This document shows, one piece after another, positions 10,073-31,400 of a stretch of DNA of 64,000 nucleotides (the stretch's first letter is position 1; every line of letters begins with the position of its first letter). This stretch comes from a virus. Location of the stretch: UHGV virus genome UHGV-1351068; one strand, 5' to 3'. The position numbers and the translations under genes are program-made. Under the pieces are notes generated by a model. The model had not been told where the DNA came from. It did not search any database and was given only the letters and a program-made list of their open reading frames with translations.

Positions 10073-10290
10073 ATTTCAGCCCAGTAAAGTGAGAACCGGA
10101 GAGTTTCTCCGGCCCATGACATAAAACGATGTACTTGTTTTCGAGTAGGTCGAGCAGAGAACTTAGCATTCACTCTACGACCAGTCTCTCTACAAACTGC
10201 TTCCAAGTACCACCGTCTACCTTTATGAGGTCTTCCATAATTCAAGAAGACCTTCATTGTATCATTTGTAGTAAGAATTGTGGTTTTCAA
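10069..10290 (-). CDS. small basic protein (73 aa)
   Basis: ORF in the track; Arg/Lys-rich. Confidence 0.45.
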   Translation of the reverse strand: MKTTILTTNDTMKVFLNYGRPHKGRRWYLEAVCRETGRRVNAKFSARPTRKQVHRFMSWAGETLRFSLYWAEI

Positions 10291-11272
10291 GATAAACCTT
10301 CTCGACGAAATCGTCCCAGAACTTCATGTCTACTTTCTTAGGCATTCCGTTCTTTTCAGCAGTATGAGCTAGAATTTCTACTTCATCTACTACAGACTCG
10401 AGAAGCTCCTGTACTTCTTTGAACGGTAACTCACCTGCTTTGACCATCTTGACCATTTTAGCATGGGTCAGAGGGAATTGAAGGTCACCAGTCATATAGA
10501 TTTCCTGAAGCTGCAGACCTGCACGAAGAGCATGACTCAGTGCTTTCCAATCTACACCTTCATTAGCTTCTGCCTTACGAGCACGTTCGCCATATTCAGC
10601 ATCAAGCTTCTCAAGGGAGTACTTCATTTCTTTAACTGTGATAGTTGTCTGGAATTTACGACCCAGAACGTTATAAAACTTCTGCTCGCCTGATTTGTGG
10701 TCAACGAAGGTGGTCCATTCGAGGAATTCACCGAGAGGAAGTTTCTCTGCGATATCCTGTACTTTCCAACGCTCATTGATACCCTTCTGCTGAGGACGAT
10801 CGTCATATTTCCATTCAGGAACATCTCTGATAACATCCAGGACTTTATGCAGGTCAGCTAAACGAGAACCCTTAACACCATACTTACCTGCTTGCTTACG
10901 GACATATCCAAGATAAGCCTTCATGTCAGTAGTATAAAAACGAGCTCGGTTGTCTTGAATGAATTTCCATACTTCAGGAAGGTCAGATGCAACTACCAAT
11001 TCCGGTGGAGTATGCAGCATATCCAACGCGACAGTTTCACCGTCAGCAGCGAGCTTGAAGAAATACTTTAAGCTGAACAGCTCATGGTCGACGTCGTCTT
11101 TCGTATTTTTGGTTGCGCTGTTATTAGTATTACGATTAGTATGATTCATCGCTTGACACAACAGAACATCACGCGGATGAGGTACAAAGATTTCTTTAAA
11201 ATCCACATCTGACTCGGGAGTTGAAGTACCATACAGATGTGAACCAAAATAAGATTTTACGATTGTTTTCAT
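10262..11272 (-). CDS. Pol-beta superfamily nucleotidyltransferase (336 aa)
   Basis: N-terminal GSHLYGTSTPESDVDF (GS...DxD NTase motif); downstream acidic residues (e.g. VALDMLH); about 200 aa C-terminal helical region. Confidence 0.6.
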   Translation of the reverse strand: MKTIVKSYFGSHLYGTSTPESDVDFKEIFVPHPRDVLLCQAMNHTNRNTNNSATKNTKDDVDHELFSLKYFFKLAADGETVALDMLHTPPELVVASDLPEVWKFIQDNRARFYTTDMKAYLGYVRKQAGKYGVKGSRLADLHKVLDVIRDVPEWKYDDRPQQKGINERWKVQDIAEKLPLGEFLEWTTFVDHKSGEQKFYNVLGRKFQTTITVKEMKYSLEKLDAEYGERARKAEANEGVDWKALSHALRAGLQLQEIYMTGDLQFPLTHAKMVKMVKAGELPFKEVQELLESVVDEVEILAHTAEKNGMPKKVDMKFWDDFVEKVYLENHNSYYK

Positions 11273-15340: not shown

Positions 15341-15544
15341 CTACTCATGTTTAATATAACACCCATTCGTATTAGCAATAAAGTCTTTGCCCTGTGCCAA
15401 TACTTTACATTCGGAATTAAGACGATTTTGCATTTCTTCTCGTCTATCGCTTTGTATAGATGCTGCCACACCAATCCAAATGAATAGCATACCTACAATT
15501 AGCATCAGGATAGTGTTATACGTTCTTGGCTTCATTATAAACAC
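15341..15544 (-). CDS. small membrane protein (67 aa); ORF 15256..15474 is the alternative frame
   Basis: TM helix ILMLIVGMLFIWIGVAA; start overlaps the end of tk. Only one of the two overlapping ORFs is likely to be real. Confidence 0.4.
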   Translation of the reverse strand: MFIMKPRTYNTILMLIVGMLFIWIGVAASIQSDRREEMQNRLNSECKVLAQGKDFIANTNGCYIKHE

Positions 15545-16115
15545 CTACCAGTTCGCACCAGTGTTTACGACAAAGAGAAACGTATTTGTCTTCACCACCA
15601 AGTTCTACTACTTCACCATCGGTAATAGCATTTCCGTTTTCGTCAATACGAGCTACCATTGTAGCCTTACGTCCACAGTGGCAAACGCCCTTGAGCTCAA
15701 CAAGTTTATCGGCTACAGAAAGAAGAGCTTTAGAACCTTCGAATAACTCGCCGCGAAAATCAGTGCGAAGCCCATATGCCATTACTGGAACATCATACAA
15801 GTCAACGATTTTACATAGCTGAAGAACATGTTCAGCAGTCAAGAATTGTGCTTCATCTACAAATACACAATGAATATCACGTTGCGTTTGTGCCCACTTG
15901 AAAAATTCAAGTATGTCAATAGATTCGTCTACTGTATTAGCTTCATGACGAAGACCAATACGAGAAGTAACTTCCGTTGCCGAATCCCGAGTATCAATAG
16001 CAGGTTTCAGAATGAGAGTTCCCATGCCGCGTTCTTTATAGTTATGGGCTGCTGTAAGAAGATTAGCTGATTTGCCTGCATTCATGCTCGCGTAGTTGAA
16101 ATAAAGCTGTGCCAT
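15516..16115 (-). CDS. tk: thymidine kinase
   Basis: MAQLYFNYASMNAGKSANLLTAAHNYKERGM...VDEAQFLT...VMAYGLRTDFRGELFEGS...CHCGRKA...CRKHW is collinear with T4 Tk (P-loop plus zinc ribbon). Confidence 0.9.
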   Translation of the reverse strand: MAQLYFNYASMNAGKSANLLTAAHNYKERGMGTLILKPAIDTRDSATEVTSRIGLRHEANTVDESIDILEFFKWAQTQRDIHCVFVDEAQFLTAEHVLQLCKIVDLYDVPVMAYGLRTDFRGELFEGSKALLSVADKLVELKGVCHCGRKATMVARIDENGNAITDGEVVELGGEDKYVSLCRKHWCELVGVYNEAKNV

Positions 16116-16283
16116 TAAAGTGTCTCCATAAAATCAGAAATAGCATTCTTAGAACGAATGAGTTCATCGTATTCTTCGGGTAGACCATTTCCGTAAATGG
16201 CACTAATAGCTACTACTTGCTCGGCACCTGCATAATCGTCAATCAACTGCCATAGTTTAGTTTTTTGCTCTTCAGTAATCATC
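16115..16283 (-). CDS. small acidic ORF (55 aa), not in the track
   Basis: MITEEQKTKLWQLIDDYAGAEQVVAISAIYGNGLPEEYDELIRSKNAISDFMETL; its stop overlaps the tk start (TAATG). Confidence 0.4.
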
Positions 16284-16306: not shown

Positions 16307-16774
16307 TTAGCATTTAGCCTCTTCATATTCTACCACCGTAATGTCAATATCAGGGGTTGCTAAATTAATAAGTTTCTCAATTAGTTCCCAATCACCGCCA
16401 GCAATACCAGCTCCAATTTTTGGAATGTATAGAGGACGATTATAAACAACACGACCAGAATTTAGCTCATGGAATGCGTTAAAGATTGCGCCATAATCAA
16501 CATTTGGACCTGGCGCATACTGAGTGTATAGATTATAGCAATACGCAGTGCCATTCTTGTGGATAGCTCGTGTATGAGTTCCAAGCTTGGCTAAATTGTT
16601 GTCATAATAACGGTCTTCATCGATGTCAATATCGAGAATTGGAGGATATGCTTTAGCAAGTTGTCCAGCTACACCAGCACCCATTGTAGTAAAGCAATTA
16701 CATCCATGAGCAATATCGCATTCATGCTTCATGAATAGTTCTACAATATTACCCTTGATATATCCAGTAATCAT
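16307..16774 (-). CDS. macrodomain protein (ADP-ribose binding/hydrolase fold, 155 aa)
   Basis: ECDIAHGCNCFTTMGAGVAGQLAKAYP ... IPKIGAGIAGGDW: canonical macrodomain glycine-rich motifs. Confidence 0.7.
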   Translation of the reverse strand: MITGYIKGNIVELFMKHECDIAHGCNCFTTMGAGVAGQLAKAYPPILDIDIDEDRYYDNNLAKLGTHTRAIHKNGTAYCYNLYTQYAPGPNVDYGAIFNAFHELNSGRVVYNRPLYIPKIGAGIAGGDWELIEKLINLATPDIDITVVEYEEAKC

Positions 16775-16782
16775 TTATTCAC

Positions 16783-17175
16783 CTACGGAATTTTATAAGT
16801 TGCATATTCATTAAGATTATTGTATACTCTTAAAAATATAGCATTGTTACAGTTAAGGATAGGGTTTAACACGCCTTGTTCTTTAGGGTGCATTACTCCG
16901 TCAATAGAAACGCCGTCACTCTGCATTCCACATCCACGAGCGTTATATTCGACAAGTGGAACTATTACCTGGTCATCTTTATCTTGATAATTATAAAATG
17001 ACATTAGCAATTTTCTACTACTAGGCACAAATGCTATTTCAATATTGTTCTTGAATGGACCGTTGCTTTCTATTTTAGTCCCCTGTGCTGCAAGCACAGT
17101 TTCAGGATAGCCTGGGAGCTTTTCCCAGGCATTAACTGAAAATGCGCAGCATAATAAAATAGCCGCTTTTTTCAT
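16783..17175 (-). CDS. secreted/periplasmic protein with a signal peptide (130 aa)
   Basis: MKKAAILLCCAFSVNA-WEK: Sec signal peptide with AxA cleavage site. Confidence 0.5.
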   Translation of the reverse strand: MKKAAILLCCAFSVNAWEKLPGYPETVLAAQGTKIESNGPFKNNIEIAFVPSSRKLLMSFYNYQDKDDQVIVPLVEYNARGCGMQSDGVSIDGVMHPKEQGVLNPILNCNNAIFLRVYNNLNEYATYKIP

Positions 17176-17492
17176 TTTGACGATAGTCCTGACATATAAC
17201 GAGCCATTAATTGGTCACGATACATTAAACATATATTTTCGTTAGGAGCATTGACACATAAATCTTTCATGCTCTTAGCCTTACGATTTATTAGTGTTGT
17301 CCACTGAGCCGGGCTACGTGAATCTTTTACTCCATCGCTGAATGCTGAATCTAATTCAAGCGCTAATATATCAACACATTCAGAGTTCGTATTGCAAAAT
17401 GTTTTAGCGATACGAAGTGAATCTGTCATTGAATTTTCAGCATTAGCAGAGAATGCCAATACCAATCCAAGAAGCGCGGCGTACTTTACCAT
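17172..17492 (-). CDS. secreted/periplasmic Cys-containing protein with a signal peptide (106 aa)
   Basis: MVKYAALLGLVLAFSANA-ENS; four Cys residues. Confidence 0.5.
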   Translation of the reverse strand: MVKYAALLGLVLAFSANAENSMTDSLRIAKTFCNTNSECVDILALELDSAFSDGVKDSRSPAQWTTLINRKAKSMKDLCVNAPNENICLMYRDQLMARYMSGLSSK

Positions 17493-18037
17493 TATTCCAC
17501 CTTTGTATGTAGCATTTTATGTTTCTTTAAGAAATTAGCTTTCTCTAGGACATCTGATGCATAAGAGTTTCCTCTTTTGACATTCCATCCTGCGTTATAA
17601 CTAGCAAGAGCTTTTCGCATATTGCCGTTATGTATATTTAACCAATATGAAAGCTCAATATATGCCCATTCCGCGGAATTCTGTCTAGATTTAAGCATTT
17701 TTCTTATTTCAGAATCACTAAGGTTTTTGCCCTCTAATTTAGCTCTGGCTTTAACCGTAGGCAAGTAATTTTGAAATACCCCATAAGAATGATGCCCCTT
17801 TCCTGCTTTTAAATTGGCTCCTGCCGAAGATTCTTTCCATGATATAGCAGCCATTATATATCCTAAGCCGTTATTATCATATCGGTTATGCGGAGATTTT
17901 TCTTTTCCGGATTTTTGATATTGTTCACCAAAATTATATGCGTAATGCAAGTTGTCAAGTTGAACATTACTGAAAGTTGGCTCAGACCCAAAGGCCGTTG
18001 AACATAAGGCCATTAGACCGATAAGCGCTTTTTTCAT
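17492..18037 (-). CDS. secreted lytic transglycosylase-like (SLT) protein (181 aa)
   Basis: Signal peptide MKKALIGLMALCSTAFG; ...AAISWKESSAGANLKAGKGHHSYGVFQNY resembles the SLT catalytic motif E-S...GxxQ. Confidence 0.55.
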   Translation of the reverse strand: MKKALIGLMALCSTAFGSEPTFSNVQLDNLHYAYNFGEQYQKSGKEKSPHNRYDNNGLGYIMAAISWKESSAGANLKAGKGHHSYGVFQNYLPTVKARAKLEGKNLSDSEIRKMLKSRQNSAEWAYIELSYWLNIHNGNMRKALASYNAGWNVKRGNSYASDVLEKANFLKKHKMLHTKVE

Positions 18038-18044
18038 GTTTACC

Positions 18045-18503
18045 TCAATTAATGTGTATAACTTTTGTGCTGATTTTACCTTTCAAACGTTTATCATTAA
18101 CGAATGCCATACGACACTTTATACTAGGTCCTTTTCCTGGTCTTGGAATATCCATGGTAAACCCTAGCCACAGATTTCCATCCGTAATTTCTAACCGCAT
18201 TGGCTTATACTCAATGTTTTCATCAATGTCCTTTGGGTCAATTGGAAGCCAAGGCATTGCTAAGAATTCATTAATTTCTTTAAGATGATTAGGAATTTTG
18301 GAAAGAACAGAGAATACATACTCTTCATCAATTTCACGTTGGATAGCACGGTCCAACAAATGATCAGAGTACTTAGTGAAGAAAGGCTCTTTACCCTCGG
18401 CTTTCGCCCGGGCACGAACAGATAAATTCAAAGAGCGAAATGCTTCCTCAAACTTACGACGCAGTTTAGTTCTGCGAATGAATACTTCTGGGTTAGTTGA
18501 CAT
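18045..18503 (-). CDS. regB: RegB site-specific endoribonuclease
   Basis: EVFIRRTKLRRKFEEAF...HLLDRAIQREIDEEYVF...EINEFLAMP...RLEITDGNLWLGFT...KCRMA matches T4 RegB nearly residue for residue. Confidence 0.85.
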   Translation of the reverse strand: MSTNPEVFIRRTKLRRKFEEAFRSLNLSVRARAKAEGKEPFFTKYSDHLLDRAIQREIDEEYVFSVLSKIPNHLKEINEFLAMPWLPIDPKDIDENIEYKPMRLEITDGNLWLGFTMDIPRPGKGPSIKCRMAFVNDKRLKGKISTKVIHIN

Positions 18504-21877: not shown

Positions 21878-22330
21878 TCACTGAGCTGTGCTATACATTT
21901 GTGTCATGATTTTGTATAAACTCGGTCCCATCACATATTTCCATTGAGAAGGTTTAATTAAAGCAAATGCATCGATTTCCGGGAAAGAAATTCCATTTTC
22001 ATCTTTATGGTAAGCTGTGCAACGGCAATTCTTAAACACTTCTGGGCTCACAGGGAGCATATATCCAAACAAATGGATATCCTTATTGCTGGCATAATCA
22101 TGTCGTCCGAGGTCATATAAGAGATCCTGGTCAAACCCAATAAACCCTGTTTCTTCCTGGCACTCACGAATAGCAGCTTCTTTTGGTGTTTCACCAGGCT
22201 CAACATGTCCTTTCGGAATATCCCATCTAGAGCCTCTACCCTGGACATAGGTATTTGTCATACGACCCATGAAAAGCCGTTTGTCATCGGTAAAGAATAA
22301 GATTCCTGCGCTGAGCTCTTTCATTGGCAT
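21878..22330 (-). CDS. nudE: Nudix hydrolase NudE (T4 e.1 position)
   Basis: Nudix box GHVEPGETPKEAAIRECQEETG. Confidence 0.8.
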   Translation of the reverse strand: MPMKELSAGILFFTDDKRLFMGRMTNTYVQGRGSRWDIPKGHVEPGETPKEAAIRECQEETGFIGFDQDLLYDLGRHDYASNKDIHLFGYMLPVSPEVFKNCRCTAYHKDENGISFPEIDAFALIKPSQWKYVMGPSLYKIMTQMYSTAQ

Positions 22331-26882: not shown

Positions 26883-26958
26883 TGGTGCCGGTTGACGGAA
26901 TCGAACCGCCGACCTTCTCATTACAAGTGAGTTGCTCTACCTACTGAGCTAAACCGGC
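26883..26958 (-). tRNA. tRNA-Thr (anticodon UGU), CCA encoded
   Basis: Reverse-complement GCCGGTTTAGCTCAGTAGGTAGAGCAACTCACTTGTAATGAGAAGGTCGGCGGTTCGATTCCGTCAACCGGCACCA folds as a cloverleaf; anticodon loop CTTGTAA. Confidence 0.85.
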
Positions 26959-27079
26959 ATATTTGGTGAAGAATTACCTACGTCACTAGGTTGGCTGTTC
27001 TGTCCACTTAAGGCTTGCAGCAGGAACACCATGGCTTTTCACCATTGATCCTCTCACGACTGAGACATTCTTCATAATT

Positions 27080-27164
27080 TGGTGCACCGAGAGGGATTCG
27101 AACCCTCAATCCCTGCGGCGTAGCATTTTAAGTGCTATGTGTATACCAGTTCCACCATCGATGC
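27080..27164 (-). tRNA. tRNA-Leu (anticodon UAA), type II
   Basis: GCATCGA...TAGCA-CTTAAAA-TGCTA; 13-nt variable arm; GAGGGTTCGAATCCCTC; TCGGTGC-A-CCA. Confidence 0.85.
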
Positions 27165-27168
27165 GAAA

Positions 27169-27245
27169 TGGTCGAGGCAGAAGGATTCGAACCTTCGACC
27201 TGCGGATTAGAAGTCCGCTGCTCTATCCAGCTGAGCTATGCCCCG
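27169..27245 (-). tRNA. tRNA-Arg (anticodon UCU)
   Basis: CGGGGCATAGCTCAGCTGGATAGAGCA-GCGGA-CTTCTAA-TCCGC-AGGTC-GAAGGTTCGAATCCTTC-TGCCTCG-A-CCA. Confidence 0.85.
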
Positions 27246-27249
27246 AGAG

Positions 27250-27376
27250 TGTTCAGGCAGGACTCGAACCTGCACGACTGATTCCGTCGGCGATTTACCA
27301 CCGTCGCCAGCATATGATGCAATATGCGAGCTCAAAAGGTGTCCGTCACCATGTCTACCGATTTCAACACTGAACA
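27250..27376 (-). ncRNA. about 126-nt tRNA-like/stable RNA candidate (T-arm plus 7-bp terminal pairing, no canonical cloverleaf)
   Basis: Ends tgttcag (27250-56) and ctgaaca (27370-76) are perfectly complementary; it contains GCAGGTTCGAGTCCTGC (a T-arm) and internal stem-loops (GGCGA/TCGCC, CGAC/GTCG). Confidence 0.35.
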
Positions 27377-27387
27377 AGATAATTATA

Positions 27388-27837
27388 TTACTGATTATTT
27401 ATAGCATTTCTTAAACGATAAAGTTGATTACAGAATTCGCGTTCAGTCAAAATCGTTTCAGAAATTTTATTTTTACCCATACTGTGAGTGAGTGTAGAAT
27501 TCCTGGTAGCAGCCAAAGCTCTTCTGAATCCTTCATTTTTACTAAGTGCATCGTATGCTCCTGTCAGTAAATTCTGATACGCTTCTGAAGCACGATGGAT
27601 TGGCACGCCTTTCCAATAAAGTGTTTGTGTTGGCCACCACCGTTTCTTTTTACCTTTGAACTTAGCCGATTTACCAACTAGTGTACATACATGTGCTTGC
27701 ATTTCAGGCGAAGAAAATTTGAGGGACTGCAAGAATCCCTCCATTGAGGCACATTCTACGCCATCATAGATAAATTTATGAGGAGCAAAGTTGCTCAAAG
27801 CACATGATGGATATGAACTACCTGAACCAATATCCAT
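27388..27837 (-). CDS. NADAR/YbiA-like (DUF1768) family protein (149 aa from the internal Met MDIGSGS)
   Basis: MDIGSGSSYPSCALSNFAPHKFIYDGVECASMEGFLQSLKF...WKGVPI: GSG...LSNF...F..DG..SxEHxxQ-type N-terminal signature of NADAR domains. Confidence 0.6.
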   Translation of the reverse strand: MDIGSGSSYPSCALSNFAPHKFIYDGVECASMEGFLQSLKFSSPEMQAHVCTLVGKSAKFKGKKKRWWPTQTLYWKGVPIHRASEAYQNLLTGAYDALSKNEGFRRALAATRNSTLTHSMGKNKISETILTEREFCNQLYRLRNAINNQ

Positions 27838-28394
27838 TACTTTTCCTTCACGTATTTCAACCAATCAACTTTTAACGGGCTTTCTTTTTGTTTATACGTA
27901 ATTCCAACATGGAATGCAACCGGGGCGTCAGGAATACGGATTTCTTCTTTAATGTCAAAGATTTCTACTTTCTCAAATACTCGCATGAAATCATAGTCAT
28001 ATTCAATTGGATTACCCAACCAAGCCTGAATAGCATACATAACTTCATTTGAACAAGAATAATGATCATCTAAATAAGCATCAAACTCTTCGTCTGAACA
28101 ATCATATGCAGGAACATCAACGCCAAAGAATTTCTTGGAAAATTCAGGAGTTACATACTTCTGTTCAGTATGAAGCTTTTCAAGAATTGCTTCATGGTTG
28201 TAATCATTATTTCCAAGGCATTCACAACGCCGACCACGAGAAGAGAACCATTCAAGAACGTGAATTACTTGATTAATCTCTTCTTTTTCTAAGCCATAAA
28301 CCATTTGGGTAGAATATCGGTCGGCATCATTTTCCCAAGTGGTAATTGCCATTGCTAAGCCTTTAGGAATAACTTGTCCAAATTTAACTTTCAT
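27837..28394 (-). CDS. hypothetical acidic protein (185 aa)
   Basis: ORF in the track. Confidence 0.55.
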   Translation of the reverse strand: MKVKFGQVIPKGLAMAITTWENDADRYSTQMVYGLEKEEINQVIHVLEWFSSRGRRCECLGNNDYNHEAILEKLHTEQKYVTPEFSKKFFGVDVPAYDCSDEEFDAYLDDHYSCSNEVMYAIQAWLGNPIEYDYDFMRVFEKVEIFDIKEEIRIPDAPVAFHVGITYKQKESPLKVDWLKYVKEK

Positions 28395-28590
28395 TATACA
28401 TTCCTCATATCTATTCGTTCTAAGGTATATTCTTTAAGAACAATCTGTTGACCACTTTTCAACAAGAATAATTGAATAGGATTTAATCCAAACCCGTGTT
28501 CTAAATCATGGTCAGTTAAATTTCTGTCGCAATAATTGAAATACATGTCAATTCTAACGAGAATGGTTTTCATAACTCCTCACACGAATT

Positions 28591-28667
28591 TGGTGACCCT
28601 GGCAAAGACTCGAACATGCAACCAATCCCTTATGAGGGGAACGCTCTACCAATTGAGCTACAGGGCC
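28591..28667 (-). tRNA. tRNA with anticodon CAU (Met or Ile2-like), solitary, with an imperfect T-stem
   Basis: GGCCCTG-TA-GCTCAATTGGTAGAGC-G-TTCCC-CTCATAA-GGGAT...GCATGTTCGAGTCTTTGC-CAGGGTC-A-CCA. Acceptor, D and anticodon arms are good; the T-stem has mismatches. Confidence 0.55.
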
Positions 28668-28744
28668 TTTATAGAAATCTTATGACTTTTATAAAAGCCC
28701 TCCGAAGAGGGCGCCTTGTCGGGCTATCCACCTGCTAGGCAGAA

Positions 28745-28969
28745 TTACTCACACATAAAATCAGCTACTTCCCAGAAGTCATTTTCAACTGCTACTTTAA
28801 CTACCGGAGAAATTTCAGATGTTTTAATAGAAACAATTACATCACCTGCGACAGTTTCTACCAGACCAACGATTTTCTCGCGGCGAGCAACAAATTTACT
28901 CACCGGATGGAATTTGCCGGTAGCAGCGAACATAGCTTCTTGGTCAACAATCAGTGCGATACGTTTCAT
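28745..28969 (-). CDS. hypothetical small protein (74 aa)
   Basis: ORF in the track. Confidence 0.45.
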   Translation of the reverse strand: MKRIALIVDQEAMFAATGKFHPVSKFVARREKIVGLVETVAGDVIVSIKTSEISPVVKVAVENDFWEVADFMCE

Positions 28970-29023
28970 TCTTTTTCCTTGTTTGTTTTGATGTAGTAAT
29001 AATAACAGGTTATTCTTGTAGCA

Positions 29024-29257
29024 TTAAATCTCGAAAATCGTTCCGTTTTCCCACATTGTTGCGAACATAGGAGAAACCTTAACGAATGATTTGCTTCGCA
29101 TTGCAACGTAGTCGTTATCTACTTTAGCCAATCCTGAAGCAATATCAGTAATACGGCCACACCTCATAGAACCACGACCACCTTTATTATATGTACGTTC
29201 TCCGTAGAAAACGATATCGCCAACTTGCACTTCTCGACCTTTAGAATCTTTCATCAT
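29024..29257 (-). CDS. hypothetical protein (track ORF trimmed to the internal Met)
   Basis: ORF in the track; start uncertain. Confidence 0.4.
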   Translation of the reverse strand: MMKDSKGREVQVGDIVFYGERTYNKGGRGSMRCGRITDIASGLAKVDNDYVAMRSKSFVKVSPMFATMWENGTIFEI

Positions 29258-29606
29258 ATTTTGCCTGCTGAATTCGTTTAAAATCGTTAACAAGTTCTTT
29301 TGGGTCTGACGCATTGTTAAATGGAAGAACTTGACGTAGTTTACTTATTTTACATCCGGTATGATAAGCAATAACTTCTTGAATATCACGTTCACTGAAG
29401 TACTCATATTTAATTAATGCTTCATATCTGCATTTAATCCAAACCCACATACCTTTGCGTTCATCAAAAGTGTATGCAAAATCAGCATGAAGCATTAAAT
29501 CACGTTCAGATTTACATAATCCTAAAGCAAAATTAGTTGGACGATTCCATTGTAATTTCACCGTAATAGCATTTACGCTATTTGCTACACCGATAAAGAT
29601 ATTCAT
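29241..29606 (-). CDS. hypothetical protein (121 aa)
   Basis: ORF in the track. Confidence 0.5.
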   Translation of the reverse strand: MNIFIGVANSVNAITVKLQWNRPTNFALGLCKSERDLMLHADFAYTFDERKGMWVWIKCRYEALIKYEYFSERDIQEVIAYHTGCKISKLRQVLPFNNASDPKELVNDFKRIQQAKYDERF

Positions 29607-29812
29607 TCTATTTCCTTCGCTTGATTTTGGTCTTCTTGTCGTGCACGAGAACGTCCTGCTTTATGCAGTGATTCGTAATATGCTCGACGTCTATCAATGT
29701 TTTCTGTACGATATGCTTTCCCGAAATGGGATGTTTTGAAGCCGTAGTATTTCATAATATAATTCTCAATGGCAAGTGATTGGACGGTATGCCCGGCCTC
29801 GAACCGAGTCAC
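29603..29812 (-). CDS. hypothetical small basic protein (69 aa)
   Basis: ORF in the track; its 5' end overlaps a tRNA-3'-half-like sequence (see findings). Confidence 0.4.
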   Translation of the reverse strand: MTRFEAGHTVQSLAIENYIMKYYGFKTSHFGKAYRTENIDRRRAYYESLHKAGRSRARQEDQNQAKEIE

Positions 29813-29930
29813 ACTGACTTTGCAGAATCCGTGTGTTTAATATATCACCCATACTCGATAGCATATCTGAACGAGACTGCAATCCCGCTACTCAGCTTAC
29901 ACCATCTTGTATTGTGTCATACCGATAATT

Positions 29931-30007
29931 TGGTCTCCATAGAATGACTCGAACATTCGACCTTTCCATCCCAAATGGAACGCTCTACCAGGCTGAGCTA
30001 TACGGAG
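29931..30007 (-). tRNA. tRNA-Pro (anticodon UGG)
   Basis: CTCCGTA-TA-GCTCAGCCTGGTAGAGC-G-TTCCA-TTTGGGA-TGGAA-AGGTC-GAATGTTCGAGTCATTC-TATGGAG-A-CCA. Confidence 0.85.
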
Positions 30008-30012
30008 TAATT

Positions 30013-30087
30013 TGGAGCATCCAGGGAGAATCGAACTCCCATCTTCTGGGTGGAAGCCAGACATAATATCCGCTATACGATGGATGC
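30013..30087 (-). tRNA. tRNA-Gly (anticodon UCC)
   Basis: GCATCCA...TCTGG-CTTCCAC-CCAGA...GGGAGTTCGATTCTCCC-TGGATGC-T-CCA. Confidence 0.85.
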
Positions 30088-30092
30088 AAATT

Positions 30093-30167
30093 TGGCAGGC
30101 CCTGAAGGAATCGAACCCTCATCACTGGGTTTGGAGCCCAGCATAATAGCCGTTATACTAAGAACCT
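30093..30167 (-). tRNA. tRNA-Trp (anticodon CCA)
   Basis: AGGTTCT...CTGGG-CTCCAAA-CCCAG...GAGGGTTCGATTCCTTC-AGGGCCT-G-CCA. The acceptor stem includes two G-U pairs. Confidence 0.7.
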
Positions 30168-30174
30168 GTTGTTT

Positions 30175-30250
30175 TGGTGCGAATACCTGGGCTCGAACCA
30201 GGGACCTACCGCTTATCGGGCGGTTGCTCTACCAACTGAGCTATATTCGC
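30175..30250 (-). tRNA. tRNA-Ile (anticodon GAU)
   Basis: GCGAATA-TA-GCTCAGTTGGTAGAGC-A-ACCGC-CCGATAA-GCGGT-AGGTC-CCTGGTTCGAGCCCAGG-TATTCGC-A-CCA. Confidence 0.85.
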
Positions 30251-30254
30251 GAAT

Positions 30255-30339
30255 TGGCGGAGAGTAAAGGAGTTGAACCCTCACCGTTTCCGATGGCCCG
30301 GATTTCAAGTCCGGTTTGCTACCACTAGCGCTACTCTCC
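30255..30339 (-). tRNA. tRNA-Ser (anticodon UGA), type II
   Basis: GGAGAGT...CCGGA-CTTGAAA-TCCGG, long variable arm, ...ACTCTCC-G-CCA. Confidence 0.85.
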
Positions 30340-30344
30340 AATGT

Positions 30345-30420
30345 TGGGGTGGCCGGCGGAATTCGAATCCGCGACATCGAGGATCACAACCTCGGGTTCT
30401 ACCAACTGAACTACGACCAC
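30345..30420 (-). tRNA. tRNA-His (anticodon GUG)
   Basis: GTGGTCG-TA-GTTCAGTTGGTAGAAC-C-CGAGG-TTGTGAT-CCTCG-ATGTC-GCGGATTCGAATTCCGC-CGGCCAC-C-CCA. Confidence 0.85.
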
Positions 30421-30515
30421 ATCAATATTCACTCCATCCATCATGAGGACTTCATACGGTAGCTAAAGCAGGTTCATGACTTCTGCCTACACATCGTGTT
30501 GAATGAATATTAATT

Positions 30516-30590
30516 TGGCTGAACCACCTGGACTCGAACCAGGGATCGTAGGATCAAAACCTACTGCCTTACCAACTTGGCTATGATTCA
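30516..30590 (-). tRNA. tRNA-Gln (anticodon UUG)
   Basis: TGAATCA-TA-GCC-AAGTTGGTAA-GGC-A-GTAGG-TTTTGAT-CCTAC-GATC-CCTGGTTCGAGTCCAGG-TGGTTCA-G-CCA. Confidence 0.8.
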
Positions 30591-30596
30591 ATTGTT

Positions 30597-30672
30597 TGGA
30601 GGCGGAGGCAGGATTCGAACCTGCGCGTGTCGGGATATGAGCCCAACATTCTACCAACTGAAGTTACCCCGC
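30597..30672 (-). tRNA. tRNA-Met-like (anticodon CAU); acceptor stem does not pair as read, so a possible pseudo- or chimeric tRNA
   Basis: D-arm, anticodon arm (TTGGG-CTCATAT-CCCGA) and T-arm (GCAGGTTCGAATCCTGC) are good, but 5' GCGGGGT cannot pair with 3' CTCCGCC. Confidence 0.45.
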
Positions 30673-30834
30673 ATTTATCCGGGTTCTTGAAGTACTAACA
30701 AGTAGCTTGATGTAGAACACGCTAAAGATATAATCTTACGAATATAGAGCTTATTCCGTGGGAACAAACAGCTTCGTCCTCGGCATTATCTTATAGGACT
30801 CAAACTCATCTTCAAGAACTGCCACGTTCTTATT

Positions 30835-30910
30835 TGGCGGACCTAACGGAATTCGAATCCGTGACTCTCGCGTGACAGGCGAGTATTTTAACCGCTGAAA
30901 CTATAGGTCC
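30835..30910 (-). tRNA. tRNA-Asp (anticodon GUC)
   Basis: GGACCTA-TA-GTTTCAGCGGTTAAAAT-A-CTCGC-CTGTCAC-GCGAG-AGTC-ACGGATTCGAATTCCGT-TAGGTCC-G-CCA. Confidence 0.85.
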
Positions 30911-31140
30911 ATAATTCGCTTTCAGAGATACTCTGGCACGATGCCGAAGCAAAGGGGAACAGGACTCTCATCACCTTGGTACCAGATGAATCTTGTTTAG
31001 CACTCTGTTCTAAGATGTATCCCTGAAAGCGAACTTTCAACGCCGTAAGAAATTATAAGCACGTAGTTATCGTTGAGGGAACTCGTACACAGGGAATTCT
31101 ATGCCGACGATTTATCAGAACGTCTTCTGACTTCTTCATT

Positions 31141-31225
31141 TGGCGGGCCGTGCAGGTATCGAACCTGCCTAGTCATTTCTGACACGGATTAACAGTCCGT
31201 CGCTTACCCTCTCAGCCAACGACCC
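31141..31225 (-). tRNA. type-II (long variable arm) tRNA with anticodon GUU (Asn?); unusual
   Basis: GGGTCGT-TG-GCT-GAGAGGGTA-AGC-G-ACGGA-CTGTTAA-TCCGT-GTCAGAAATGACTAG-GCAGGTTCGATACCTGC-ACGGCCC-G-CCA. The 15-nt variable arm forms a stem GTCA/TGAC; this is Tyr/Ser-like architecture but the anticodon is GUU. Confidence 0.6.
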
Positions 31226-31230
31226 GAATT

Positions 31231-31307
31231 TGGTGGGACACCGAAGACTCGAACTTCGGACACCCGGATTAAAAGTCCGGTGCTCTAACCAACTGAGCTA
31301 GTATCCC
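31231..31307 (-). tRNA. tRNA-Lys (anticodon UUU)
   Basis: GGGATAC-TA-GCTCAGTTGGTTAGAGC-A-CCGGA-CTTTTAA-TCCGG-GTGTC-CGAAGTTCGAGTCTTCG-GTGTCCC-A-CCA. Confidence 0.85.
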
Positions 31308-31313
31308 TAAATT

Positions 31314-31400
31314 TGGTGGGGAGTAATGGAGTCGAACCACTCGAGCCTTTTGAGCAACAGATTTACAGTCTGTCCCGCTACCCCTACGGTCTAACTCCCC
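31314..31400 (-). tRNA. tRNA-Tyr (anticodon GUA), type II
   Basis: GGGGAGT...ACAGA-CTGTAAA-TCTGT, long variable arm, GTGGTTCGACTCCAT-TACTCCCC-A-CCA. Confidence 0.85.

Follow-up and report, generated by a model that had tools for sequence, protein, structure and literature searches.

Genomic context of the locus

The DNA analysed here, hereafter called the window, is a stretch of 64,000 nucleotides from the virus genome UHGV-1351068. Its source is a T4-like Klebsiella/Raoultella phage near the genus Jiaodavirus: its nucleotide identity to Klebsiella phage vB_Kte_K65PH164 is 98.5%, more than 100 further Klebsiella and Raoultella phages of ~166 kb each also match it at the nucleotide level, and Mineola, a near relative, belongs to the genus Jiaodavirus of the subfamily Tevenvirinae. 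On the minus strand at 16307–16774 lies an open reading frame (ORF) for a protein of 155 amino acids (aa) with an ATG start, which contains the strings NCFTTMGAGVAGQ and GAGIAGG. A second ORF, at 27388–27837 on the minus strand, has 149 aa if read from its ATG; a TTG farther upstream would extend it to 158 aa. These two had been described in an initial annotation as a macrodomain gene and a NADAR/YbiA-like gene about 11 kb apart; both ORFs are real, the motifs that it quoted are present, and the separation is 10.6 kb.

The macrodomain ORF sits in an array of same-strand genes and is flanked by T4 landmark genes, namely thymidine kinase, vs and regB. The gene order in the window is tk, a small ORF, the macrodomain gene, a 130-aa ORF, vs, a vs.1-like gene and regB, while the T4 record gives tk, tk.1–3, tk.4 and vs. 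Synteny with the tk.4 position is anchored downstream by tk (15516–16115, minus strand; PF00265, E=2e-55) and upstream by the gene for the valyl-tRNA synthetase modifier, vs (17172–17492, minus strand; phrog_1256, 4e-37); regB is found at 18045–18503. The macrodomain gene is thus placed between tk and vs as is T4 tk.4, with one added ORF between it and vs. Its Shine–Dalgarno sequence is read as AGGTGA (16784–16779, minus strand), 4 nt 5' of the ATG, where it overlaps the TAG stop codon (16785–16783) of the upstream 130-aa ORF. A sigma-70 promoter scan around the gene returned 7 sites against 12.5 in shuffled sequence and is uninformative on expression.

The small ORF between tk and the macrodomain gene (16115–16282, minus strand) encodes 55 aa and belongs to DUF7438 (PF24219, E=2e-15); T4 has tk.1, tk.2 and tk.3 in this interval, whereas the window has this one small gene only. 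The 130-aa ORF that separates the macrodomain gene from vs (16783–17175, minus strand; phrog_4957) has a signal-peptide-like N-terminal segment, and a search for a Pfam match to it found none. T4 is without any gene between tk.4 and vs, whereas the window has this predicted secreted protein there. In the laboratory-evolved phage K65_evo10 (L003 19851–20242), two small ORFs are annotated over the same stretch, where the alignment is short of one base, suggesting a frameshift arisen in host-range evolution. The 181-aa protein at the vs.1 position (17492–18037, minus strand) also has a signal-peptide-like N-terminus. Its match to a lytic transglycosylase (SLT) is sub-threshold (E=0.0039, 17.2 bits against a cut-off of 21.3), and its gene is named 'lytic transglycosylase domain-containing protein' or 'lytic tail protein' in some GenBank records. 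Farther away, at 10262–11272 on the minus strand, a 336-aa RlaP-family protein is encoded, a nucleotidyltransferase of the 'RNA repair pathway DNA polymerase beta family' (PF10127, E=1.6e-14), for which a PADLOC search gave no match. The window also carries 16 tRNA genes, which are all that an Rfam search of it returned.

Fold of the 155-aa protein

The 155-aa protein had been credited with textbook macrodomain motifs. The fold has been borne out, while the adjective has not: as a single sequence the protein scores E=2.8e-4 and 21.2 bits with Pfam Macro (PF01661), below the gathering score of 22. Many homologues at 40–60% identity to it carry a precomputed PF01661 assignment. A family profile built from 40 sequences and run against the PDB matches BT1257 (8e-20), SCO6735 (3e-16), TARG1 (9e-16), Poa1p (5e-14), Mycobacterium tuberculosis DarG (1e-11) and Thermus aquaticus DarG (9e-10). 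The AlphaFold model has a pLDDT of 92.1 and a pTM of 0.88, and Foldseek aligns it with Poa1p, TARG1, DarG, BT1257 and SCO6735 at TM 0.71–0.79 with a probability of 1.0. The protein is predicted from these models to have the three-layer α/β/α macrodomain fold. In the family alignment, N26, G34, G121 and G123 are invariant, in keeping with an ADP-ribose cleft consisting of the loop-1 Asn and the GxG phosphate loop. As a stand-alone macrodomain, the protein falls into the TARG1/DarG/SCO6735 class. The protein matches phrog_335 at 4e-57, and its homologues occur in 2,781 phage records with very diverse hosts. In deposited records the gene is labelled 'phosphatase', 'macro domain protein' or 'hypothetical', a mixture that arises because the Pfam Macro score falls just under the gathering score.

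T4 and PHROGs owe their 'phosphatase' label to a Poa1p-like reading, according to which the macrodomain would be an ADP-ribose-1''-phosphate phosphatase with a housekeeping role in nucleotide or tRNA metabolism. Poa1p is the top structural match of the model (6LFR, E=2.4e-10, TM 0.78) and also the top single-sequence match in the PDB. Its H23 and S30, which with F152 are the sites of PDB mutant entries, align with H23 and T30 of the window protein, and the T4 record notes that tk.4 'contains A1pp phosphatase motif'. Nevertheless, BT1257, SCO6735 and TARG1 score above Poa1p with the family profile, the label is older than any functional test, and we know of no source of Appr-1''-p in a T4-type infection. 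Moreover, DarTG2 sensitivity is the sole conditional phenotype found in T4 (bioRxiv 10.1101/2025.11.20.689424). A housekeeping phosphatase is highly improbable at this locus.

Orthology with T4 tk.4 and resistance to DarTG2

The window macrodomain aligns with T4 Tk.4 at 46% identity over 155/155 residues (E=7e-47), and from this alignment and the shared gene position the ORF at 16307–16774 is assigned as the orthologue of T4 tk.4, now called adfM. The initial annotation was not aware of either of its two proteins being a characterised T4 product. This is wrong, since they correspond to T4 tk.4 (bioRxiv 10.1101/2025.11.20.689424) and to T4 30.3 (PMC11825919, PMC11125620). In earlier work, T4 without both adfA and adfN was still resistant to DarTG2, by which a further anti-DarTG2 factor was predicted. 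When a T4 transposon library was grown on a DarTG2 host (HIDEN-SEQ), tk.4 was the single significant hit, and a clean tk.4 knockout makes T4 sensitive to DarTG2; the gene has accordingly been named adfM (anti-DarT factor macrodomain) in a 2025 preprint (bioRxiv 10.1101/2025.11.20.689424). In the same preprint Tk.4 is reported to be structurally similar to M. tuberculosis DarG, and removal of ADP-ribose by Tk.4 is proposed on genetic evidence (bioRxiv 10.1101/2025.11.20.689424). Counter-defence against DarTG, one of two roles suggested in the initial annotation, is thus the experimentally supported function of the T4 orthologues AdfM and AdfN.

The other suggested role concerned the protein ADP-ribosylation that the phage itself carries out with Alt, ModA or ModB, which would be reversed or tuned. 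T4-like phages do encode these transferases, with alt annotated in T4. The residue modified by all three is arginine. The macrodomains of the TARG1/DarG/SCO6735 class that have been assayed, however, have as substrates ADP-ribose linked to thymine, uracil or acidic residues, and TARG1/DarG-class macrodomains are not known to cleave the arginine linkage; neither has an Alt, ModA or ModB gene been identified near adfM or adfN in the window. ADP-ribose on acidic residues of proteins can be removed by SCO6735 and TARG1 (PMC9411070), but no phenotype of this kind appeared in the T4 screen (bioRxiv 10.1101/2025.11.20.689424). Tuning of the phage's own programme is unsupported and extremely improbable, and counter-defence is the reading followed below.

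A glutamine-type active site

The DarG-like chemistry that the initial annotation implied fails in detail. In the profile alignment, the invariant Gln85 of the Tk.4 clade aligns with Lys84 of TARG1 ('NlYtq' versus 'YLITK') and Ala125 of the window protein aligns with Asp125 of TARG1, so that the Lys84/Asp125 dyad of TARG1 is absent from the window macrodomain (K84 to Q85, D125 to A125). The catalytic lysine of DarG is likewise absent, and Gln85 stands at the position of K80 in T. aquaticus DarG. Gln is found at position 85 in 116 of the 120 homologues retrieved, the other four being truncated sequences or pattern misses. An identical N-x-x-x-Q ('NMIGQ') is present in BT1257 and SCO6735, ALC1-like macrodomains that are the nearest relatives with solved structures. 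H23, N26, Q85 and G123 of the window protein, the last of which closes the G121-A-G123 segment, correspond to H24, N27, Q85 and G128 of SCO6735, the numbering of which was checked via the 20-residue tag offset of chain 5e3b.

Gln85 of SCO6735 is the structural equivalent of Lys80 of DarG and Lys84 of TARG1 (PMC9411070). With Q85A or Q85E, SCO6735 no longer hydrolyses thymidine-linked ADP-ribosyl DNA, with N27S hardly any activity is left and with G128E it is reduced; in vivo, SCO6735 shields Streptomyces coelicolor from DarT (PMC9411070). To judge from these alignments, the Tk.4-clade macrodomain probably does not use the lysine mechanism of DarG and has an SCO6735-type site instead. The inspection of catalytic residues proposed in the initial annotation hence gives a divided answer: the Lys of DarG and TARG1 is absent, but the site is of the active SCO6735 type with an essential Gln. 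A degenerate binding module, as might be supposed from the missing catalytic Lys, was rejected because the same Gln is essential in SCO6735 and invariant in the clade. The two DNA-contacting lysines of SCO6735, K34 and K89, are not conserved in the window macrodomain, where K34 aligns with A33, and the loop after Q85 is 5–6 residues shorter than the mobile loop of SCO6735 and is devoid of Lys. DNA binding by the window macrodomain must therefore be arranged differently.

Membership of the DarG family was also considered for the window macrodomain. It scores 18.5 bits with the NCBIfam DarG model, the cut-off of which is 250, and with the PADLOC DarG model it covers positions 17–144 of 329, the macro half (E=4.9e-5). 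The family assignment was rejected in that the catalytic Lys, the C-terminal domain and a neighbouring darT are all missing, the neighbours being tk and vs.

The macrodomain might owe its protective effect chiefly to binding and not to catalysis, either as an inhibitor bound to DarT2 or as an occupant of ADP-ribosylated DNA. Inhibition of DarT in vitro persists with the catalytically dead Q85A mutant of SCO6735 and is stronger there than with inactive DarG or TARG1 (PMC9411070), and AdfA and AdfB, which are other anti-DarT factors, act through toxin binding. On the other hand, the 155-aa protein has no counterpart of the C-terminal DarT-binding domain of DarG, its full active-site set is invariant across the clade, pointing to selection for catalysis, and a macrodomain parked on modified DNA would leave the replication block uncleared. 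PhiKZ AdfM and SCO6735 both erase the modification enzymatically (PMC13309987, PMC9411070). Protection mainly by binding is considered very unlikely, and removal of ADP-ribose by the macrodomain is preferred.

It is also conceivable that DarT2 is just one target and that other nucleic-acid ADP-ribosylating defences or toxins, for example those producing uracil-linked ADP-ribose on RNA, are the main or added ones. According to the literature, the Gln-type SCO6735 outperforms DarG in clearing single-stranded RNA of uracil-linked ADP-ribose, and the 2,781 phage records with their very different hosts may represent a wider spread than known DarTG2 systems would explain. However, no bacterial defence that ADP-ribosylates RNA uracil is known from the literature examined, SCO6735 is reported to be inactive in the main assays on RNA ADP-ribosylated through a 2'-OH or a 5'-phosphate, and the T4 phenotype is explicable by DarTG2 alone (bioRxiv 10.1101/2025.11.20.689424). 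As a rival, this reading is considered very unlikely; a wider range is more fittingly taken as a possible extension of the DarTG2 reading than as a contradiction of it.

The second ORF, a phage-type NADAR

The second ORF (27388–27837, minus strand) had been described as NADAR/YbiA-like, with PF08719 proposed as its Pfam family. The fold is upheld by the model, although the Pfam match is not: PF08719 (DUF1768/NADAR) gave no match even at E<=10, and TIGR02464 matched weakly (E=0.025). The ORF belongs instead to PF08010, Phage_30_3 (2e-55, 186.8 bits against a cut-off of 36). Searches of PDB sequences with the single sequence and with a 20-sequence profile, a shallow one in which the listed homologues are all at least 67% identical, gave nothing meaningful. 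In the absence of a PF08719 match, the NADAR assignment had to rest on structure and on the literature about PF08010. With the AlphaFold model (pLDDT 84.7), the only Foldseek matches at a probability of at least 0.8 are NADAR structures, namely YbiA (2B3W, 2.7e-4), a Geobacter lovleyi protein (8BAT) and a Phytophthora nicotianae protein (8BAU). A NADAR fold is thereby predicted for the second ORF.

The protein is 41% identical to T4 gp30.3 (E=1e-34), with the alignment extending to T4 residue 152 of 152, and on this alignment the ORF is assigned as the orthologue of T4 30.3 (adfN). E36 and K43 of T4 correspond to E33 and K40, the signature His of phage NADARs is H118, and the C-terminal helix is intact. 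E33, K40 and H118 are invariant in the family alignment, and the E..K motif is found in 119 of 120 homologues.

T4 gp30.3 has been renamed AdfN (anti-DarT factor NADAR) in work of 2024–2025; for T-even phages to resist DarTG1 it is both necessary and sufficient (PMC11825919). It removes ADP-ribose from DarT1-modified DNA in vitro, an activity that is weakened by E36A and K43A, and a protein that has lost the C-terminal helix, such as that of RB69, is inactive; the structural matches of T4 AdfN are the same three NADAR structures (PMC11825919). Cihlova et al. found guanine-specific activity of gp30.3 in vitro and defined phage NADARs by the His of the last strand (PMC11125620). They also found that gp30.3, active in vitro, does not rescue uninfected cells from DarT1 toxicity (PMC11125620), indicating that its activity is context-dependent.

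The ATG of adfN overlaps the stop codon of the upstream gene by one base. The gene lies in the 16-tRNA cluster (26883–31400), where its nearest tRNA genes are three on the downstream side and one on the upstream side. The upstream neighbour (27837–28394, phrog_2290) is unrelated to T4 30.2. A T4-like synteny of adfN was rejected on account of this upstream ORF and the tRNA-cluster position, from which it follows that the gene was moved or separately acquired within T4-like genomes.

Proposed mechanism of counter-defence

On infection, host DarT2 would ADP-ribosylate thymidines, and DarT1 guanines, in single-stranded phage DNA, by which replication would be blocked. The macrodomain, as an ADP-ribosylglycohydrolase, would strip the thymidine-linked ADP-ribose and allow replication to continue, while the NADAR would strip the guanine-linked ADP-ribose placed by DarT1. 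In the macrodomain, Gln85, held by Asn26, would probably place the distal ribose so that an activated water molecule can attack it. The division of labour assumed in the initial annotation, in which the macrodomain serves thymidine and the NADAR serves guanine, holds. On this analysis, the two erasers are regarded as complementary rather than redundant: they would not be interchangeable, because NADARs are inactive on thymidine-linked ADP-ribose (PMC11125620) and AdfN gives no protection against DarTG2.

It is likely, and held with good confidence, that the window phage possesses the two-enzyme anti-DarTG kit of T4, in which the adfM macrodomain with its Gln85-type site erases DarT2 marks on thymidine and the adfN NADAR erases DarT1 marks on guanine in a complementary manner. 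The functions of both genes would already be known from the T4 orthologues AdfM and AdfN, and DarTG counter-defence is well supported by this comparison. We infer that the proteins of this phage act as their T4 counterparts do and that catalysis on DNA extends to the Tk.4-type enzyme; Klebsiella hosts would present DarTG.

Between adfM and adfN, a NUDIX hydrolase is encoded at 21878–22330 on the minus strand (PF00293, E=1.6e-16). Free ADP-ribose is reportedly hydrolysed by T4 NudE, and the NUDIX hydrolase could break down the product that these two erasers set free.

Two lineages under the name AdfM

The name AdfM was given independently to gp104 of phage PhiKZ in a 2026 Cell Reports paper (PMC13309987). 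This protein removes DarT2-installed ADP-ribose from DNA in vitro, and N23A weakens its activity (PMC13309987). In a translation of the published sequence, gp104 is of the Lys type ('FPTK') as is DarG, and its similarity to the window macrodomain amounts to one local BLAST match of 23 residues (E=0.002). T4 Tk.4 and PhiKZ gp104 are, as judged from these sequences, distant members of one macrodomain class that differ in the predicted active-site chemistry, and gp104 is probably an independent acquisition carrying the same name. As two groups have given this name to different proteins, annotation transfer by name only would merge two lineages.

A broader account of origin is put forward tentatively, at a confidence slightly short of even. 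The Tk.4-type AdfM of T-even phages and Jiaodavirus may have come from stand-alone bacterial macrodomains of the SCO6735/BT1257 type and not from a borrowed DarG2, and it may operate independently of lysine with an activated water positioned by Gln; T4 Tk.4 and PhiKZ gp104 would then be two independent inventions against DarTG2, and the former may also erase uracil-linked ADP-ribose from RNA. If true, this RNA activity would extend the reach of the Gln-type enzyme beyond DarTG2.

In hundreds of T4-like phage records these genes are still listed as 'phosphatase' or 'hypothetical protein', and the labels adfM and adfN can now replace these entries. Where such a phage is used in therapy against Klebsiella, resistance to both DarTG1 and DarTG2 is predicted from the adfM and adfN pair. 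Beyond published work, the Gln-for-Lys site ties T4-type AdfM to SCO6735 and not to DarG, and it predicts that Q85A and N26A mutants lose protection. With the functions given by the T4 orthologues, the residual value of the present analysis is the assignment of the Gln-type site, the recognition of two lineages under the name AdfM and the differing genomic placement of adfN.

Comparison with known systems

T4 Tk.4 (AdfM) resembles the window protein in its length of 155 aa, in its location in the early-gene array from tk to vs and in the invariant H, N, Q and GxG; it differs in the host genus and in being accompanied by three tk.x genes, where one small gene is found here. SCO6735 (PDB 5E3B) and BT1257 (2FG1/2AFC) are, as is the window protein, stand-alone macrodomains with the same N...Q signature and are its best profile matches. 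However, they are cellular, non-phage proteins with 22–25% identity to it, and SCO6735 has K34, K89 and a longer loop. The DarG2 macrodomains of T. aquaticus (5M3E) and M. tuberculosis (5M3I) share the fold (TM 0.76–0.77) and the active-site Asn with the window protein, and the same substrate is expected, whereas the catalytic Lys80, the C-terminal DarT-binding domain and the adjacent darT of DarG2 are all lacking here. PhiKZ gp104 is, like the T4-type AdfM, a stand-alone phage macrodomain that counters DarTG2; unlike the window protein, it is of the Lys type and is imported into the phage nucleus. T4 gp30.3 (AdfN) shares with the window NADAR the PF08010 family, the E, K and signature His residues, the intact C-terminal helix and the NADAR fold, while T4 30.3 has 30.2 and 30.4 as its neighbours, close to the DNA ligase gene, and adfN of the window is located inside the 16-tRNA cluster.
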